Source of the DNA: Terriglobia bacterium
GTDB taxonomy: Bacteria > Acidobacteriota > Terriglobia > 20CM-2-55-15
DNA: 64,000 bases
Assembly: GCA_965198225.1 (NCBI GenBank)
Contig: CBDAOY010000008.1
Coordinates: 288,001 to 352,000, forward strand
Reading direction: 5' to 3'
How positions within the stretch are numbered: position 1 is the stretch's first letter; the number at the start of each line of letters is the position of its first letter. The notes below the pieces were generated by a model. The model ran no database searches. It saw only the letters and a list, made by a program, of their open reading frames with translations, and was not told where the DNA came from. Made by a program: the position numbers and the translations under genes. Shown here piece by piece: positions 7,084-61,761 of the stretch.

Positions 7084-7136
7084 CTAGCACCCCGACGGGG
7101 AGAAGTGCCCGACGATGTTATACTTGTGCGGCTAAC

Positions 7137-24791: not shown

Positions 24792-24951
24792 TAGCTTCAG
24801 TCTCGAAACGACCATGATAGCAATTGCTTCGCCTGGTGGTCAATCTCACCAGGTGGGACAGACTTGCGGTCGTACCGGCAAAGGCCCCACCGACGGTGGT
24901 CCCCGAGCCCCGCGTGCTATAATTCAGAACGAGTTACGTCCTCAGCCAGGA

Positions 24952-54837: not shown

Positions 54838-55353
54838 ATGGACGACCCTATGAAACGTCAGGGCGCCTTCGGCACCCTCGCAAAATTTGCGCTTATCCTG
54901 GTTGCCGTTGTCGTGGCACAGGGCATTCTTTCGCTCAAATTTGAAGTTTTCGCCTACTTTGATTTGCCCCTAATCTACACGATATATTATGGTTTCACCC
55001 TGGCAAGCCCAACCGGATCCATCGCCGTAGGTAGCGCCCTGGGTCTGATGCAGGACAGTTTGTCCGGCGCAATTCTGGGTCTGAACGGATTCAGCAAGAC
55101 GCTGATCGGCTTTCTGGCCGCTTCTGCGGGGTCGAGATTCGACGTCGATCAACCCATTGCCCGAGCGTTGGCTTTGGTGCTGTTCACCTTTGCCGATGGG
55201 ATCCTGAGGATTCTGCTGGGTGCCCTGGTGGACCCGGGCGCTGAGAGTTTTGTTCCTGGCCCCGGCGCATGGGTTCTGTCGGCCGCGTTCAATACTTTGT
55301 TCGGCATGATCTTGTTCGGATACAGGAGCCGATTCGCTGATGCGACAACGTGA
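54838..55353 (+). CDS. mreD: Rod shape-determining protein MreD
   Basis: Hydrophobic, GLMQDSLSG..LGLNGFSKT; operon position. Confidence 0.9.
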   Translation: MDDPMKRQGAFGTLAKFALILVAVVVAQGILSLKFEVFAYFDLPLIYTIYYGFTLASPTGSIAVGSALGLMQDSLSGAILGLNGFSKTLIGFLAASAGSRFDVDQPIARALALVLFTFADGILRILLGALVDPGAESFVPGPGAWVLSAAFNTLFGMILFGYRSRFADATT

Positions 55354-57181
55354 GGAACTCGAACTTCTCAAGCGACGGATAGCCGCGATATTTGCGTTGA
55401 TCCTTCTGGCTTTCGGAGTCCTCGTTTTTGGTTTCTGGAATCATCAGATTGCGCAGTCGCCCCGTTACCGTCAGCTCGCGGAGCGGAACAGGATTCGCGA
55501 CATCCCTCTGGCGGCGCCTCGCGGAAGCATCCTCGACCGCGAGTTCCGTGTCATAGCAGACAGTCGTTCTTCCTACAATCTCATGCTCACGCGGGAAAAC
55601 AGTCCTCGTCACCCGGAAGAGACCATCGCGATCCTGGCTTCCGGGATCGAAGCCTCGGAGCGGGAGCTGCTGCGGTGGTTCGAGCCGCATCGGGACGAAC
55701 CCGAGTATAAGGCGATCCCTCTGAAGGAAGACCTGTCGCTTGCCGACATCGCCTACGTCAAGGCTCACAGGTACGAACTTCCAGAGATCAGCCTCGAATT
55801 CGAACCGCGTAGACGCTACGAGCGCGGCGAACTGGCAGCCCTTCTGCTGGGCTATCTCGGTGAGATCAGTCAGGACGAGTTGGGCACGGATGAGTTCCCC
55901 GGGCGCCGGGCCGGTGACCTTGTAGGGAAGTCGGGTCTCGAGCGGCAATACGACGCGCTCTTGCAGGGCAAAGACGGCCTGCGCCGAGTCATCGTCAACA
56001 ACTACGGCAGGGAAATGGGCACGCTCGCGGAGGTCAAGCCTGTTCCCGGTCAGGACCTGGTGACGACGCTGGACCTGGACCTTCAGTTGGCAGCCGAGCA
56101 GGCAATGGCGGAACGAACCGGCGTCGCGGTCGCGATCGATCCGCTTACCGGAGAAGTACTGGCGCTGGTCAGCCGGCCGGCGTTCGACCCGACGGTGTTC
56201 GCCAGAGGAATCCGGCTGGACGAATGGGAGGCACTGGTTTCCGATCCGCGCAAGCCGCTCCGGAATCGGGCAATTCAGAATCGCTATTCACCAGGCTCGG
56301 TGTTCAAGATCTTCATGACGGCCGCCGGACTCGAGGAGCTAGCGATCGTTCCGGACGATGTCCTCTTCTGTCCAGGTGCCGCGGTTTTCTACGGTAACAG
56401 GTTCGACTGCTGGAAGGGCGGTGGGCACGGGCGCATCGCGCTGCACGACGCGCTGGTCCATTCCTGCAATGTGTTCTTCTACAACGTCGGGTACAGGCTG
56501 GGAATCGACGCGATCTCGTCGCACGCCATCACGATGGGCTTGGGGCGCAAGACCGGCATCGATCTGCCGAGCGAAGACGCCGGCATCATGCCGTCTGAGG
56601 AATGGCGGCAGCGCGTCTCGAATACCCAGTGGTACCCCGGCGAGACGATATCGGTCAGCATCGGTCAGGGGCCGGTGAATGTGACACCTCTACAGTTGAC
56701 CTGGGCTGTCGGCGGCCTCGTTACTGGCGGCCAGCTCCACCAGCCGCATCTGGTCGATCCGGGGTTCCTTCGCGGGCTCGGTGTCGAGGTCCCGGACCTG
56801 AGATACGAGCGATACCCGGTGCAGGAATCGACCGTACAGATCGTGCGTCAAGCCCTCTGGGGGGGCGTCAACGAACTCGGCACGGGAACAAGAGCGCGCG
56901 TGCGGGGCTTCGACGTCGCCGGCAAGACCGGAACCGCACAGGTTGTCCGTAAAGAAATCTATGACCGCGTCGGCGAAGAGTTTGAAGACCATGCCTGGTT
57001 CGTCGGCTTCGCACCGTTCGACGACCCGCAGATCGCAGTTGGCGTCTTCGTCGAAAACGGCGGTCACGGTGGGGCGGCTGCTGCCCCGGTGGCGCAGGCC
57101 GTCATGCAGGTCTATTTCGACAAGAAGGAAGACGGCGTTACCGACAACCGGGGCGGTGAGCTTGACCGGTTGGGCCAGTAG
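55340..57181 (+). CDS. mrdA: Penicillin-binding protein 2
   Basis: PRGSILDR, PGSVFK (SxxK), SCN, KTGTAQ. Confidence 0.96.
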   Translation: MRQREELELLKRRIAAIFALILLAFGVLVFGFWNHQIAQSPRYRQLAERNRIRDIPLAAPRGSILDREFRVIADSRSSYNLMLTRENSPRHPEETIAILASGIEASERELLRWFEPHRDEPEYKAIPLKEDLSLADIAYVKAHRYELPEISLEFEPRRRYERGELAALLLGYLGEISQDELGTDEFPGRRAGDLVGKSGLERQYDALLQGKDGLRRVIVNNYGREMGTLAEVKPVPGQDLVTTLDLDLQLAAEQAMAERTGVAVAIDPLTGEVLALVSRPAFDPTVFARGIRLDEWEALVSDPRKPLRNRAIQNRYSPGSVFKIFMTAAGLEELAIVPDDVLFCPGAAVFYGNRFDCWKGGGHGRIALHDALVHSCNVFFYNVGYRLGIDAISSHAITMGLGRKTGIDLPSEDAGIMPSEEWRQRVSNTQWYPGETISVSIGQGPVNVTPLQLTWAVGGLVTGGQLHQPHLVDPGFLRGLGVEVPDLRYERYPVQESTVQIVRQALWGGVNELGTGTRARVRGFDVAGKTGTAQVVRKEIYDRVGEEFEDHAWFVGFAPFDDPQIAVGVFVENGGHGGAAAAPVAQAVMQVYFDKKEDGVTDNRGGELDRLGQ

Positions 57182-57300: not shown

Positions 57301-58398
57301 ATGATCGAATTACTCCGCAGCCCGCGATTCTGGAGGGATTTTGACTGGGCCCTGTTCGTGGTCGCGCTGATGTTGTGTGCGATTGGTCTTGTCGAGATCT
57401 ACAGTTCGACGCTCAACATGGAATCGGACTTCTTTCTCCGCCAACTCGTCTGGGTAGGCGTGGGCATTCTCCTGCTGTTCGTCGTTGCCGCGATCGATTA
57501 CCACGCCTTCGCGGAGAATGCTCCGTTGCTTTACATGGGCGCAGTCCTGCTTCTGGCCTACGTCCTGTTCTTCGGCCACACGGTCTCCGGATCCAGATCC
57601 TGGTTCGGTGTGGGTTCGCTGGGCCTGCAGCCTTCCGAGATCACCAAGATGGTAGTCGTCATTGCCCTGGCACGCTATCTGGCAGGGCTCAAGCAGCGAT
57701 ACATGAGCTTCTCCCAGATCGTCACAGCCGTCGCAATCTGTGCCCTACCGGTATTGCTGGTCGCCCTGCAGCCCGACCTGGGAACAGCGATCACCTTTGT
57801 TCCAATCGTGGCGTTCGGGCTTTTCGTACGAGGGGTAAGACCGGCGGTTCTGGTGTCCGGGCTTCTCATCTTGATCCTCCTGCTCCCGTTGACGTGGCTC
57901 GTACTGAAGGACTATCAGAAGGATCGAATCATCACATTTCTTCAGCCCGAAACGGACCCGCTGGGTAGCGGGTATCAGGTCATCCAGTCGAAGATTGCGA
58001 TCGGGGCCGGCGGACTCTGGGGTAACGGACTGTTCCAGGGAAGCCAGAACCAGCTTGGATTCCTCCCAACCCGGCATACCGATTTCATTTTTTCCGTCGT
58101 GGCGGAAGAACTGGGCTTCGTCGGCGTTTCGCTCACGCTCGGCTTGCTTCTCGCTTTGCTCCTGCGCGCTCTGGCCGGTGCCCTCATGCCGCGAGACACG
58201 CTGGGACTGTTCATCGTGGTCGGAGTCGTCGGCATGTTTGTGTTCCACATCCTGGTAAATGTAGGGATGGTGATCGGTTTCATGCCGATCACTGGAATAC
58301 CGCTTCCGTTTGTCAGCTACGGCGGATCCTCGGTGCTGACGGCTTTCATCGGACTGGGGCTGGTGATCAGCGTAAGACGTTGTCGTTACGTGAATTGA
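57301..58398 (+). CDS. rodA: Rod shape-determining protein RodA
   Basis: GSRSW, QPSE, QPDLGT, HTDFIFSV, PITGIPLPFVSYGGSS. Confidence 0.97.
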   Translation: MIELLRSPRFWRDFDWALFVVALMLCAIGLVEIYSSTLNMESDFFLRQLVWVGVGILLLFVVAAIDYHAFAENAPLLYMGAVLLLAYVLFFGHTVSGSRSWFGVGSLGLQPSEITKMVVVIALARYLAGLKQRYMSFSQIVTAVAICALPVLLVALQPDLGTAITFVPIVAFGLFVRGVRPAVLVSGLLILILLLPLTWLVLKDYQKDRIITFLQPETDPLGSGYQVIQSKIAIGAGGLWGNGLFQGSQNQLGFLPTRHTDFIFSVVAEELGFVGVSLTLGLLLALLLRALAGALMPRDTLGLFIVVGVVGMFVFHILVNVGMVIGFMPITGIPLPFVSYGGSSVLTAFIGLGLVISVRRCRYVN

Positions 58399-58403
58399 AT
58401 TCG

Positions 58404-59355
58404 TGATATAGTTTTTCTGTCGCCCGCGAGGAGGGCAGGAGAGCAGAGCCCGTTTCGACCGCAAGGCCCACATTATTAATGGCTTACGTGGGTCGGACGA
58501 AAATTTTTCGCCTCGGGGTCGTTTAGTGCACTTGTAAGAGTTTTCTTGATCGCCCAGTGTGCGATCGGCCGGCTGGGTTCGCAGGGTCGGTTGCTTGTCT
58601 TGTTGACGGGGCTTCCGGTTGGGAGCCATCCCCGGACGGGCAACCCATGATCCTCGAGTCGACCACAGCGCCGGCGCGAGACTTAAGGTCTCATCCCAGG
58701 CTCCGCGGCTGCCGGAATTGCCCCAGCCGGAGCCCGTCGAAGAAAGCTTCGACGCCGTTCGGAGGGAACCCTTCGAACATACCGTGGTCTCGATCGCTGT
58801 TACCTACTTCTTGCGCAAGTGAAAGGCGCAGGATTCGAGGGGACGGAAGCCGAGTCGAAACCTGACGGTTCTAAGAATTTCAGCGCGAAGCCTTGCCATG
58901 TGAAGGCGGGCCTCGATCGCTCAGGATTAAAGATTTGCCCGTAACGCTGCGGCGTAAGAGTCGAGCTTCAACTCGCGGTTGAACCTGCGACGCCCGATAT
59001 CGGCGGTCTAAGAGATCGGTGCTGGACGGAATCCCGTGGGGTTCCTCGAGCCGATCGAGTCTGGACTGCGACATTAGAGGTCCTGCTGGTGACGTTTCAG
59101 AGGAAACGAACCGGTGGGGCTTTATTTGAGCAGTTCGTCAGACAAGCCGCTCGGGTCGTTCGCGACAATCCGAGACCGGCTCCTCCGGGCCAGGAGTTTC
59201 CATGACAGCATGTGGAGTTTGCGCTCGCGCAATCGCGTCGAGGAGTACACCTGTGCGCCGCCCCAGTCGGGCCTACCCTCTGTTCTAGACAGGATCAGAA
59301 GCGGCGACGCCGCCTGAAGGTCCGGTCTGGGTGGAACAGCGGCACAGGAGTCTCG
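58404..59355 (+). ncRNA. Candidate ~940-nt structured 5' leader or large ncRNA upstream of RNase E/G
   Basis: Extended -10 TGaTATAGT at 58404-58412; at least 15 hairpins and nested long-range helices; no credible ORF. Confidence 0.55.
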
Positions 59356-61761
59356 ATGCGGAAAGAATTAATCATCTCTACGATCCCGCAGGAAACACGG
59401 GTCGCGGTTCTCGAGAACGATGAACTGGTGGAGTTCCTGATCGAACGCCACCGGACTCAGAACATCGCAGGCAACATCTACAAGGGACGCGTTACGAAGG
59501 TCCTTCCCGGAATGCAGTCTGCGTTCGTGAACATCGGCCTCGACCGGGACGCGTTCCTATACGTTTCCGATTTCTTCGAAGATACAGACGAATACGAGAG
59601 AGTTGTCGCTTCGGCAGAGGAGGACGCCATTGCTGAAAGCGAGAAGCCTCGATCGGTCGGTCGGGGTAAGACCCCGCGACCGGAGAAGCCTGTCGAGAAG
59701 ACCGAACGACCCGAGAGCGAGCCCTCAGAGTCCGTCAAGAGCTCGGATCGTCCCAGCCCCCGGCGTCGTGGCGAGAAGCGTGAGCGTAAGCCACGCATCC
59801 CGTCACTCGAGTCGCGCGAAGCTGAATCCGACTCCAGAGAGACCCGACCTCCCAGGGAGACGCGGGAAGCGCGAAGTCCCAGGGGGCCCCGAGACGAGGA
59901 GCGTCGTCAGGGCAGCATTCAACTGTTGCCTGGAGAGTCCCTCGCCAAGTACGCCGACGAGGTTGTTTCCGACCCCAACGAGGTTGCGGAATCCGAACTG
60001 GAACAGGTCATCGGCGAGACCGAGGAGCAGCACCTGCTCGAGCAGTTTCCGCGGGAAGCTCGGATGCCCGTCGCCGATCAGGACGCCGGCCTGTACACCA
60101 CTGAAAACGGGCAGCCGGACACCACTGAAAAGGAGCCGGTTGAAGAGGAGACAGCCTCCAACGATCGGCCTGGATCCAAAACGGATCCGGTCGTCACTGA
60201 AGAGACATCCCCATCCGACGGTGCCTCGGGCGAGGCTTCGAGCGTCCCGGAAGTCCAGGAAGAGGTGAACGAGGAAAAACCGATCGCGACCCCGGAGCCT
60301 GCTGACGCGAGCACGGCTGAAGCGTCCGCCGCTGGTGTCGACGACACGAGCGAAACCAAGATCGACGAGGGTCCCGCTCTCGCGGAATCGGACTCCCCGG
60401 CGGAAGAAAGCGATTCGGGTGAGGAGGGCGAGTCCCGGACCGCACGGATCGCGGATCGTCGAGACAAGCGAACGTTCTCGCGGCGCCCGCCGGCCAGGAG
60501 GCCGAGGCGCCGTTCCCCAGCGAAGTCCGAATCGAGCCGTGCGGGATCGGGCTCGAGAGGTCCGACAATTTCCGACCTTCTGCAGGAGGGTCAGGAGATC
60601 CTGGTCCAGGTGTCGAAGGAACCCCTGGGCAAGAAAGGGGCGCGGATCACATCGCACATCGCCCTGCCGGGCCGGTACATCGTTTACATGCCCACCGTAG
60701 ATCACATCGGAGTGTCTCGGAAGATCAGTTCTGAGGACGAACGCGCTCGTCTGAGGCGAATTATCAACGAGAATCGAGAGGACCTTCCGGGCGGTTTCAT
60801 CGTTAGGACGGCCGGCGAGGGCAAGGATGAGAAGGAGCTGATCCAGGATCTTCGCTTCCTCGGAAGTCTGTGGGGCGAGATTCGTAGCGGCAACGAGCGA
60901 AACTCGGCGCCGGCCCTGATTCACAGCGATTTGAATCTGGTGCAGCGGGTTTTGCGAGATCAGCTTTCCGAAGAGTTCAAGGCTATCCGCCTGGATAGCG
61001 AGACCGAGTACGAGAAGGTGTTGGAATTCGTCAACCGGTTCCAACCCGACCTGGTCAATCGGGTCCGATTGCACCTGAAAGATAACTCGATCTTCGAAGA
61101 ATACGGGCTCCAGCAGGAAATCGACAAGGCGTTGCGCTCGAAGGTCTGGCTCAAGTCCGGCGGCTACATCGTTGTCAACCAGACCGAGGCCCTCGTGGCG
61201 ATCGACGTCAACACGGGAAAATTCGTCGGCAAGTCGAACCGACTGGAGGACACGATCGTTCGGACCAACATGGATGCGGTTCACGAGATCGTCCGGCAGA
61301 TACGCCTTCGAAACCTCGGCGGCATCATCGTCGTGGATTTCATCGACATGGAGGAAAGGAAGAATCGGCAGCGTGTGATGCTGGCGCTCGAGGAGGAACT
61401 CCGTAAGGACCGGTCGCCTTCGAAGATTCTTCAGTTTAACGACTTCGGTCTGGTCGCGATCACTCGCAAGCGCACCCAGCCGTCGCTGGAACGTGTTCTC
61501 GGCTCACCGTGCCCTCGTTGCGCGGGATCGGGCTTCGTCAAAGCGGTCGAGACCGTTTGCTACGAAATCCTGCAAGAGGTCAAGAAGATGCTCTCGGAGA
61601 TCGACGGGCCCGAGCTCACGGTTCGCGTCAGTCCGGATGTCGCAAAGGCTCTGAAGAGCGGGGACTACATCGATCTGACAGAGATGGAGGACGAGACGAA
61701 GACCGACATCCGGATCCAGAGTGACCCTCTACTGCACGCCGAGCACTTTGACATTTTCTGA
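59356..61761 (+). CDS. rne: Ribonuclease E/G family protein with a large disordered insertion in the S1 domain
   Basis: GNIYKGRV, GMQSAFV, LVQVSKEPLGKKGAR, IDVNTG, GGIIVVDFIDM, CPRC; AGGAG SD; rne versus rng not resolved. Confidence 0.93.
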   Translation: MRKELIISTIPQETRVAVLENDELVEFLIERHRTQNIAGNIYKGRVTKVLPGMQSAFVNIGLDRDAFLYVSDFFEDTDEYERVVASAEEDAIAESEKPRSVGRGKTPRPEKPVEKTERPESEPSESVKSSDRPSPRRRGEKRERKPRIPSLESREAESDSRETRPPRETREARSPRGPRDEERRQGSIQLLPGESLAKYADEVVSDPNEVAESELEQVIGETEEQHLLEQFPREARMPVADQDAGLYTTENGQPDTTEKEPVEEETASNDRPGSKTDPVVTEETSPSDGASGEASSVPEVQEEVNEEKPIATPEPADASTAEASAAGVDDTSETKIDEGPALAESDSPAEESDSGEEGESRTARIADRRDKRTFSRRPPARRPRRRSPAKSESSRAGSGSRGPTISDLLQEGQEILVQVSKEPLGKKGARITSHIALPGRYIVYMPTVDHIGVSRKISSEDERARLRRIINENREDLPGGFIVRTAGEGKDEKELIQDLRFLGSLWGEIRSGNERNSAPALIHSDLNLVQRVLRDQLSEEFKAIRLDSETEYEKVLEFVNRFQPDLVNRVRLHLKDNSIFEEYGLQQEIDKALRSKVWLKSGGYIVVNQTEALVAIDVNTGKFVGKSNRLEDTIVRTNMDAVHEIVRQIRLRNLGGIIVVDFIDMEERKNRQRVMLALEEELRKDRSPSKILQFNDFGLVAITRKRTQPSLERVLGSPCPRCAGSGFVKAVETVCYEILQEVKKMLSEIDGPELTVRVSPDVAKALKSGDYIDLTEMEDETKTDIRIQSDPLLHAEHFDIF

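Follow-up and report, generated by a model that had tools for sequence, protein, structure and literature searches.

Locus and flanking genes

The pace of mRNA decay across the cell is set by RNase E-family enzymes, whose dosage is kept under tight control; cis elements of their genes have, according to the abstracts that cover them, been described for few lineages: gamma-proteobacteria, Caulobacter and Synechocystis (10.1101/2023.12.15.571756, PMC10989929). The question raised here is what occupies the 957 nt (58399-59355) between rodA and such a gene in the window, by which we mean the whole 64,000-nt stretch of Terriglobia DNA that was analysed. A sequence-only reading of the window had proposed one unusually large autoregulatory sensor RNA or an undescribed large ncRNA co-transcribed with the nuclease.

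On the plus strand the spacer is preceded by rodA (57301-58398; FtsW/RodA/SpoVE family, Pfam PF01098, E 1.1e-93) and followed by a gene for a Rne/Rng-family ribonuclease (59356-61761; Pfam PF10150, E 5e-99), which we call rne, encoding 801 aa from a conserved MRKELIIS start, with an N-terminus conserved in relatives. The product scores 498 bits against TIGR00757 (cut-off 326) and falls below the cut-off of the RNase G equivalog model; its PF10150 match is the only one in this 97%-complete genome, hence the sole RNase E/G gene found. Annotation of rne is affected because gene callers carry its frame up to 59212. A scan of 58399-59355 revealed no terminator-like site, the only one reported being at 58219 inside rodA, and the spacer does not show the layout of a trp-type leader-peptide attenuator (an intrinsic terminator hairpin with U run between leader peptide and gene). 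The spacer is the folded 5' leader of the rne mRNA.

Promoter element and RNA coverage

The extended -10 promoter-like element that the sequence-only reading had placed at 58404-58412 (TGATATAGT, plus strand) is present, rare in the window and kept just after rodA. Its CGTG-TATAGT columns are invariant in 12 of 12 aligned relatives; the pattern TGNTATANT occurs at 3 sites in the 64 kb (0.55 expected) and lies 7-36 nt past the aligned end of rodA in 26 of 27 relatives, the offset being meaningless in the 27th, where the rodA match is partial, and a 28th locus being cut at a contig end. A scan of the leader for classical -35/-10 promoters gave none; the element is an extended -10 without a -35. 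We infer that the leader is transcribed from this promoter of its own just past rodA, with a transcription start near 58419.

Metatranscriptome contigs from four runs of one study cover 58435-59155 of the leader. Their starts (58435, 58442, 58446, 58478) give only a weak hint of the transcription start, and the coverage must be tempered by low depth, by contigs that show neither RNA ends nor strand, and by possible DNA carry-over. The view of the spacer as the leader of an RNase E/G gene with its own promoter-like element is upheld.

A conserved core in a variable leader

Relatives keep a core of approximately 200 nt of the 957-nt spacer. Covariance model R1 finds one copy each in 28 of 34 family genomes, and model R2 one copy each in 31 of 34 genomes of the Terriglobia family/order, including all 24 high-quality genomes. 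The core stands directly before the rne start in all 31 loci checked (28 family loci and 3 further genomes), with rodA upstream of it in 27 of the 28 family loci and in the 3 further genomes.

Outside this group, R2 recovered no true copy in 130 other Terriglobia genomes; 3 matches among them (E 0.003-0.01) were attributed to chance because none adjoins rne or rodA. Scanning 57900-59900 with cmscan for every one of the 4227 families of Rfam 15 (E <= 10) produced no real match, only chance-level ones to Atu_C6 (E 6.9) and sR47 (E 6.7). An exact 18-mer scan of a genome collection returned 114 stretches, mostly chance, with an rne match in 12 of the 114 loci; ten of these are Terriglobia that carry the core, mostly genomes already in our set, and the other two, which fall within coding sequence that precedes an rne in a Bacillota-labelled record, were dismissed as chance. 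Four more 18-mer matches, labelled Terriglobia or Acidobacteriota, resemble, as we read their sequence, the part of a peptide-chain release factor gene that encodes the GGQ motif. A 28-mer scan of a metagenome collection yielded one locus that is near-identical to genome G001 and thus adds no diversity.

We divide the core into five blocks which would act, in order, as z (anti-anti-Shine-Dalgarno), a (anti-Shine-Dalgarno), b (upstream Shine-Dalgarno, followed by an AUG and an ORF), c (second anti-Shine-Dalgarno) and d (rne Shine-Dalgarno). Spacer length spans a roughly seven-fold range across relatives (210 to 1503 nt), and the variation is located before z, in the loop between z and a and, in the source genus, in the loop between c and d. 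Module spacing is constant, with loops of 3 to 253 nt. Across 10 genera the promoter element, the AUG and blocks z, a and b change little or not at all amid variable surroundings, and the remaining ~750 nt of the leader are lineage-specific insertions in the 5' domain, the z:a loop and the c:d loop. Conservation in relatives therefore extends to some 200 of the 940 nt that had been taken as one element, and not to the remainder.

Blocks z, a and b

Block z (GCCCG...GAGUNGAGC, 58937-58966), present in 31 of 31 genomes and one of the two islands of the leader with DNA matches, consists of the 5' arm of a helix P1 (GCCCG, 58937-58941) followed by a small ACGC/GCGU hairpin and by a segment complementary to block a, GAGUCGAGC (58958-58966); the sole variable base of GAGUNGAGC is a predicted bulge. 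Block a (59179-59190) is an anti-SD-like GCUCCUCC followed by CGGGC, the 3' arm of P1; it is invariant in a 27-genome alignment, and the window has no second match to the 18-mer at <= 2 mismatches. Block b (59192-59196) is an upstream Shine-Dalgarno, AGGAG (SD1), with GGAG invariant and an AUG 5-8 nt on in 28 of 28 genomes.

A MAFFT alignment from z to b of 16 short-loop genomes misplaced z in long-loop rows, so pairs were counted by anchoring instead, and in the 31 genomes 150 of 155 P1 cells and all 217 z:a cells are able to pair. Block b has two potential partners, a (pairing in 99% of cells, and invariant) and c (97.1% of cells). The invariance of z, a and b leaves z:a, P1 and a:b with no covariation, and these pairings are predicted from complementarity and geometry alone. 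In the full-length fold of the window's leader z:a, P1, a:b and b:c all have a pair probability of 0.0, and forcing z:a costs 6.9 of 425 kcal/mol; the composite helix of z:a and P1 is clear in the unconstrained minimum free energy (MFE) fold of 4 of 10 short leaders (G044, G017, G011, G040). Candidate mid-domain GACA/UGUC helices pair in only ~70% of cells across two sequence subtypes.

Just 5' of z lies an A/U-rich linker, UUAAAGAUUU (58927-58936), predicted to be single-stranded. A/U-rich runs (AAAGAUU, GUUUU) also precede GCCCG in the relatives inspected, and the known preference of RNase E makes the linker a candidate entry and cleavage site for the nuclease.

The distance from z to a (3-253 nt across genomes) is filled in the window by an insertion (58967-59178) that folds as a self-contained domain closed by pairing of its two ends. 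The insertion opens with UUCAACUC (58967-58974), an alternative local partner of z, and one pair of this local hairpin covaries among 14 long-insert genomes (UA in 5, UG in 5, CG in 3). Alignment of the insert from 14 genomes displayed no common structure besides that hairpin.

The rne ribosome site and the upstream ORF

Block c (59250-59256), the anti-SD CCUGUGC, pairs with 59342-59348 at pair probabilities of 0.85-1.0. Its partner, block d (GCACAGGAG, 59342-59350), contains the rne Shine-Dalgarno AGGAG (59346-59350; SD2), which stands 5 nt from the AUG in 30 of 31 genomes and lies inside a conserved helix, as expected of a sequestered ribosome site. Across 26 distinct sequences 91.2% of c:d cells pair and 3 of 7 pairs have changed on both sides; none of 500 shuffles reaches the observed pairing or covariation score, and slid controls pair at 35-53%. 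In genome G008, for example, c is CCUGAU and d is AUCAGG where other genomes have CCUGUG and CACAGG, a compensatory change. The pairing of CCTGTG with CACAGG over the rne SD, noticed in the sequence-only reading, is thus real, conserved and covarying. Local MFE folds pair the first three or more bases of the rne SD in 26 of 31 genomes and some of its bases in all 31. Between c and SD2 there are 17-20 nt in 26 of 31 genomes; another has 41 nt, and the 4 genomes of the source genus have 89-120 nt. In that genus the genus-specific insertion in the c:d loop (59257-59341 in the window) is enclosed by a fold of 59246-59358 that closes through c:d.

The statement that the spacer has no credible ORF was right for the long frames (64-102 codons), since a Pfam search of four frames within the spacer, these included, gave no match; it missed an ORF of 28 codons plus stop (MTACGVCARAIASRSTPVRRPSRAYPLF, 59202-59288) which begins at the AUG behind SD1 and runs through block c. 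Its length varies from 24 to 58 codons, with a variable C-terminus. All 28 genomes lack an in-frame stop in the first 72 nt, c included (the two alternative frames have 34 and 28 stops), an openness that could in part reflect shared descent. As in coupled leaders that sequester a ribosome site, the sequestering strand is crossed in all 28 genomes by an upstream ORF that has an SD and start codon of its own. It ends at or beyond the rne AUG in 24 of 28, and in the source genus 60-110 nt short of it. In 20 genomes it enters rne by 44-98 nt, out of frame, an overlap that could occlude the rne start instead of helping it.

The ORF has no three-base periodicity (entropies of 0.45, 0.50 and 0.57 for the first, second and third codon positions, with 15, 16 and 14 variable columns), and the genera read the conserved bases in different frames; the peptide itself is therefore not conserved. 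Within the ORF lies an apical hairpin, UGCG-CUCG-CGCA (59220-59231), in which 90.4% of cells pair and whose loop is closed by CG in 11 of the 26 distinct sequences and by GC in 8.

Folding of the variable domains

Most hairpins of the sequence-only reading fall in the 5' domain (58419-58926), a lineage-specific segment; the interval from promoter to z measures 51-999 nt in 30 genomes, and the domain shrinks to 51-134 nt in several genera. Outside the two islands it has no DNA match even within the genus, and 58610-58833, which holds most of the listed hairpins, has none at E <= 0.001 at that level. An origin of the 5' domain as a repeat or mobile element was rejected, there being no second copy in its own genome.

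The leader does fold better than shuffled sequence: a 972-nt stretch has an MFE of -429.6 kcal/mol (z-score -5.05, equalled by 0 of 20 shuffles; minus strand -2.88). By sub-domain, z-scores are -2.32 for 58419-58930 (1 of 100 shuffles equal it), -4.76 for 58967-59178 and -2.75 for 59246-59358. We tested the helices of the sequence-only reading as 13 arm pairs in the full-length fold. Eight are in the MFE structure with pair probability >= 0.8 (GGCTTCC/GGGAGCC, GAGAC/GTCTC, GGCTCC/GGAGCC, GGCTG/CAGCC, CGTCGAAG/CTTCGACG, GTTCGGAGG/CCTTCGAAC, TCTTGCGC/GCGCAGGA and CCTGTG/CACAGG), and three are weak (GATCGC/GCGATC 0.19, TTCAACT/GGTTGAA about 0.25, GTCG/CGAC about 0.45). The two long-range helices that were to close a multibranch domain of ~300 nt, ACGGGCAA/TTGCCCGT and TGATCCT/AGGATTA, lack support, with a pair probability of 0.01; TTGCCCGT has a conserved alternative partner at 59186-59190, not at 58636. 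The tiled hairpins are thus predicted in their majority, and most of the hairpins of the leader are probably fast-evolving filler. A single 940-nt sensor built on that multibranch domain finds no support in the comparison, since the core is ~200 nt and spacers of 210-385 nt suffice in relatives.

Proposed mechanism and alternatives

The reading we favour, with somewhat better than even confidence, is that of a leader with its own promoter in which the relay of blocks z, a, b, c and d opens the rne SD through translation of the upstream ORF, with probable feedback by the nuclease. The conserved c:d hairpin buries the rne SD. When z is paired with a, SD1 would be free and ribosomes would translate the upstream ORF, melting c:d and exposing the rne SD, a translational coupling by unfolding; when a is paired with b, the upstream ORF would be silent and the rne SD would remain locked. 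Autoregulation by the nuclease itself would enter through cleavage of the A/U-rich linker or the z:a loop, which would part z from a; alternatively, cleavage may expose an untranslated leader to decay. In a more ambitious version, to which we give a rather low probability, the sole RNase E/G would weigh its own activity against ribosome loading in a two-tier relay with SD1 as a decoy ribosome site: cleavage would free a for SD1, translation of the upstream ORF would stop and the rne SD would be relocked, the loop inserts, which reach 200-1000 nt in the source genus, serving as adjustable nuclease 'antennae'. If true, this would be a translation-coupled homeostasis of RNase E, unlike the decay-coupled kind known from E. 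coli.

The same two ribosome sites could instead be the target of an RNA-binding protein, for example of CsrA type, that binds the GGA of b and d and represses via the upstream ORF. Two CAGGAG sites are separated by ~150 nt in the window and by ~90 nt in short forms, both ribosome sites share up to 15 identical bases in one genus, two CsrA-family proteins of this genome score above the Pfam cut-off, and E. coli iraD offers a precedent (PMC5574718). These GGA motifs are, however, ordinary SD sequences, GGA being the only part compared with a CsrA-type consensus; they sit in stems or single strands of predicted folds, not in hairpin loops as is typical of CsrA-regulated leaders, and nothing ties CsrA to rne here. 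We consider control of this kind unlikely.

Could the 5' part (about 58420-59150) be a separate stable ncRNA, processed or independent, that for instance titrates the nuclease? In 4 of 4 runs contigs span 58435/58478 to 58995/59155 at a word depth of 4.4-6.5 (0-5 on the flanking genes), 59156-59392 is without a contig in 3 of 4 runs, and the fold of the region beats shuffles. Contig depth and gaps are nevertheless uninformative at a depth of about 5 with all runs from one study, the 5' domain is unconserved even within the genus, and the leader has neither a terminator-like site nor an Rfam match. Because the 5' part varies from 51 to 999 nt, a separate large ncRNA of this sort is unlikely.

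A further possibility is that, besides the SD-masking hairpin, the spacer is non-functional, fast-evolving DNA whose hairpins come from chance, G+C richness and past insertions. About three quarters of the 957 nt lack detectable similarity in the same genus, and the modest z-score of the 5' domain and the length range given above point the same way. As an account of much of the variable parts this probably holds. For the whole spacer we think it quite improbable, given the near-invariance of z, a, b, the AUG and the promoter element in 10 genera, and insertions that are placed precisely in loops and fold as closed domains. Finally, although every genome examined keeps the SD and AUG of the ORF at 59202-59288, all 28 have an open frame and a Cys-rich MTIRDxCLxAxCLxVSLC occurs in most of the 15 among them that belong to genera g2, g5, g7 and g11, a functional small protein whose gene would explain the conservation of the core is scarcely credible, as its frame over the conserved bases varies by genus, its codon positions are equally variable, its most variable codon coincides with the loop of a hairpin with a covarying stem, and its length ranges from 24 to 58 aa.

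Comparison with known leaders

The E. coli rne 5' UTR is 361 nt long, with an hp2/hp3 sensor, and its control acts through mRNA decay; to our knowledge it has no upstream ORF. Like E. coli rne5 (Rfam RF00040), the leader described here is a long structured 5' UTR that has its own promoter and precedes the main RNase E-family gene, and by analogy feedback by the enzyme would be the expected logic here too. Its placement, in the 5' UTR of the RNase E gene, is that of RF00040 in the window and in 28 of 28 family loci. The RF00040 covariance model does not match the leader at E <= 10, and the twin ribosome sites, upstream ORF and two anti-SD blocks are an architecture unlike that of E. coli. The rne-II motif, the Pseudomonas-type rne leader, likewise had no match to the leader in the whole-Rfam 15 scan.

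Autoregulation of RNase E through the 5' UTR is summarised for gamma-proteobacteria (10.1101/2023.12.15.571756). In the abstracts concerned, RNase E of Caulobacter crescentus cleaves the rne 5' UTR in a feedback (10.1101/2023.12.15.571756), and that of Synechocystis cuts a U-rich stretch of its own 5' UTR, also in a feedback (PMC10989929). Compared by these descriptions, the counterpart here is the conserved A/U-rich linker, at which cleavage is inferred; the two abstracts mention neither an upstream ORF nor an SD-masking hairpin.

An upstream SD and AUG opening a short ORF that overlaps or approaches the main start, as here, are outlined for E. coli iraD (PMC5574718) and for upstream sites of Sinorhizobium meliloti (PMC13285730), where the output of the main gene is set by how the upstream ORF is translated. 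Both concern single proteobacterial genes, unrelated in sequence to this leader. Here, in contrast, the upstream ORF runs across a dedicated anti-SD strand and a second anti-SD stands opposite the ORF's own SD, an arrangement that would make a two-tier relay.

Closest in setting are the rne leaders of another Terriglobia family (f3), which have the same rodA-rne synteny and a spacer of 335-698 nt and are missed by covariance model R2. There the word GCUCCUC, as in block a, has the rne SD itself as its partner in all 8 loci, and the 7 loci scanned have exactly one GGAG-spacer-ATG site each, with no second ribosome site or upstream ORF. The leader is not a new kind of system. It is a family-wide, sequence-defined rne leader for Acidobacteriota, a phylum nearly without RNA-regulation data, and it tolerates large loop insertions, which bears on how RNA family models are built. 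Its combination of twin sites, upstream ORF and two anti-SDs leads to clear, testable predictions.

Genomic context and the ribonuclease

A PBP2-type transpeptidase gene (55340-57181) is followed by rodA (57301-58398), and a 957-nt gap then extends to a gene of the Rne/Rng ribonuclease family (rne), whose conserved N-terminus, MRKELIIS, begins at ATG 59356. An in-frame GTG at 59212 adds 48 codons (59212-59355; open-frame figures 849-851 aa), and this extension is not conserved as protein among relatives. These added codons overlap the leader core, and with the conserved N-terminus beginning only at 59356, automatic annotation may put the rne start in the wrong place.

The ribonuclease passes TIGR00757 (498 bits, cut-off 326), is nearest to RNase G yet under the RNase G equivalog cut-off, and is the one PF10150 match in this 97%-complete genome. 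Profile matches to its gene (59356-61761) begin only at residues ~391-404 of 801; a charge-rich, poorly conserved insertion of ~300 residues (~100-400), with large indels between relatives, separates the catalytic domain from a conserved segment at the N-terminus. In two genomes of one genus (G012, G020; loci L017, L016) one or two tandem 15-nt duplications directly follow the rne start codon (MQKDS-TQKDS-IQKEL...), so that the protein alignment there starts at an ATA codon.

Distribution of the leader

Of 40 related genomes searched by BLAST with the rodA-rne spacer, 12 gave matches, in two islands only (58927-59012 and 59163-59262); in each of the 12, rodA, gap and rne follow in that order, the gap measuring ~460-1500 nt. 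The sequence-only reading had described a ~940-nt densely structured leader, taken for an autoregulatory sensor or a large ncRNA. Conservation in relatives holds for the two islands and a ~200-nt core, the remainder being unmatched by BLAST, and the proposed sensor is mostly a lineage-specific expansion around that core. No Rfam family matched the spacer at E <= 10, nor any Pfam family its longer frames.

Searching with R1, a covariance model of the 3' island, gave a single copy in 28 of 34 genomes of the family, with the rne N-terminus directly downstream in 28/28 loci and rodA upstream in 27/28, the remaining locus being truncated at a contig end. R2, a model derived from 24 short forms, detected a copy in 31/34 (24/24 high-quality genomes, 10/11 genera), and the three genomes gained have the rodA-element-rne arrangement likewise. 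In a class-wide test of 150 sampled genomes, 130 of them outside the family, weak matches (E 0.003-0.01) arose in 3 of the 130, none near rne or rodA. Given its family-wide presence, and outside matches that are only weak and away from these genes, the element is by model search confined to the family, which is the whole order within the genome set examined. True matches in the public genome collection are labelled Terriglobia, Solibacteraceae or Acidobacteria. The 18-mer GCTCCTCCGGGCCRGGAG also turns up by chance in other Acidobacteriota (L035, L054, L087, L098), in what resembles the part of a peptide-chain release factor gene that encodes the GGQ motif, so that a pattern this short lacks specificity when scanned over 596 Gb.

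Layout of the leader

Alignments and anchored measurements give a chain of elements in identical order everywhere. Immediately 3' of the rodA stop lies TGNTATANT, the extended -10, at the position first proposed for it (58404-58412), followed by a variable 5' domain, an A/U-rich linker and block z, the anti-anti-SD (GCCCG, a small optional hairpin, then GAGUNGAGC). A variable loop leads to block a, the anti-SD (GCUCCUCC, then CGGGC). Next come block b (SD1, AGGAG) with AUG1 5-8 nt downstream, a short hairpin, block c (the second anti-SD, CCUGUGC) and its loop, and block d, the rne SD (SD2), with the rne AUG 5 nt further. Block a lies 23-27 nt from AUG1, AUG1 45-49 nt from c (except in one genome, where the anchor pattern possibly misplaces c), and c 17-20 nt from SD2 (89-120 nt in the window's genus alone); the distances from promoter to z (51-999 nt) and from z to a (3-253 nt) are variable. 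Since core distances are near-fixed, variation falls in three places and leaders in five genera measure 210-385 nt, the window's 957-nt spacer is, on this alignment, an expanded form of the shorter leader.

The leader contains no terminator-like site, and its 5' domain is single-copy in the genome. In one relative (G040, locus L147) the 5' domain carries long inverted repeats rich in G+C (CCCTCTCCC.../...GGGAGAGGG), which resemble a palindromic repeat element acquired by insertion. Two further TGNTATANT sites in the window, at 7116-7124 and 24915-24923 (total 3 versus 0.55 expected), may be additional extended -10 promoters.

Helices

Strong folding, anticipated by the sequence-only reading, was borne out: the minimum free energy of the 972-nt stretch is -429.6 kcal/mol (z = -5.05, 20 dinucleotide shuffles), and its opposite strand gives z = -2.88. 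Among 13 arm pairs listed in that reading, 8 belong to the MFE at pair probabilities of at least 0.8, three local ones reach 0.19-0.47, and two long-range helices claimed to close a ~300-nt domain have a pair probability of 0.01. Its c:d pairing over the rne SD stands, with window pair probabilities of 0.85-1.0. When 27 short forms (26 distinct) are aligned with MAFFT, 91.2% of the c:d cells are paired, with both sides changed in 3/7 pairs (CCUGAU/AUCAGG in one genus, CCUGUG/CACAGG in others); in the window it encloses an 85-nt insert. The apical hairpin in this alignment pairs in 90.4% of cells, its closing pair being CG in 11 sequences and GC in 8. For the whole structure, 0/500 shuffles matched the observed pairing or covariation score, and sliding the partner by 1-3 columns lowers pairing to 35-53%. 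Block c can just as well pair with b (97.1% of cells, zero double changes).

Blocks z, a and b are invariant, the sole variable base of z being a predicted bulge; z:a pairs in 217/217 cells and the flanking helix P1 (GCCCG/CGGGC) in 150/155. Support for the predicted z:a helix is geometric, in that the variable insertion is located exactly in its loop, which in short forms is 3-7 nt or an insert forming its own hairpins. The composite z:a and P1 helix is clear in the unconstrained MFE of 4/10 short leaders, and forcing z:a in the window costs 6.9 of 425 kcal/mol, the 212-nt insert then being a closed folded domain. Evidence against z:a comes from the free fold of the window, in which z:a, P1, a:b and b:c have zero probability, and from the long-insert genera, where z also has a covarying local partner (window 58967-58974).

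The upstream ORF

An AUG stands 5-8 nt past SD1 in 28/28 genomes first examined, and the ORF it begins (59202-59288 in the window) is open for 24-58 codons; its first 72 nt hold 0 stops, compared with 34 and 28 in the two remaining frames. The ORF stops at the rne AUG (UGAUG) in 4 genomes, 44-98 nt inside rne and out of frame in 20, and 60-110 nt before the rne AUG in the window's genus (4 genomes). The predicted peptide itself is not conserved, because indels shift the frame between genera and codon-position variation is flat in the 14 genomes sharing a frame (entropy 0.45, 0.50, 0.57; 15, 16, 14 variable columns). Between the two ribosome sites, up to 15 bases are identical in one genus and 7 in the window.

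Expression

Contigs at least 99% identical over 58435-59155 occur in four metatranscriptome runs, all from a single study and carrying the label sponge metagenome. They start at 58435, 58442, 58446 and 58478; one ends at 58415 and none crosses 58416-58434. Because such contigs reveal neither ends nor strand, and may stem from carried-over DNA, their starts give only a weak hint of a transcription start just after the -10.

Proposed regulation and comparison with other rne leaders

Alignment and predicted pairing describe a conserved, family-restricted leader with a covarying SD-masking helix, a conserved SD-AUG-ORF crossing the masking strand, complementary z, a and b, and insertions confined to loops. 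Translation of the upstream ORF would open c:d, competition between z:a and a:b would govern access to SD1, and RNase E/G would be the source of the feedback signal. We infer this RNase E/G feedback on the leader purely by analogy with precedents, those in 10.1101/2023.12.15.571756 and PMC10989929 and the 5' UTR of E. coli rne. A CsrA-type regulator might conceivably act on the leader, the genome encoding two CsrA-family proteins above the Pfam cut-off (G000:C9:546155-546310 and G000:C2:30887-31012).

The leader is real, conserved and regulatory, another form within the known class of RNase E-gene leaders. Among the papers listed by our literature search, none concerned an acidobacterial rne leader. 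A class-wide protein search located the rne N-terminus in 115/120 genomes, a tally that takes in three unpublished ones (G118, G126, G099), which enter no other result. In another Terriglobia family, f3 (L220-L227, 170 nt before rne), rodA-rne spacers measure 335-698 nt in 8/8 loci and terminate in a GCUCCUC...GAGGAG hairpin that covers the rne SD, one of the eight reading GCUCUUC. Most of 7 f3 loci compared also have in common an upstream block, GAAACACnAAAGAGCUUGAACGGUA, which probably marks a distinct rne leader family, so far undescribed. As the GCUCCUC hairpin covers the rne SD in f3, SD masking by this word looks ancestral in the class. Compared with the f3 leaders, the window's family adds a second ribosome site, an upstream ORF and a second anti-SD.
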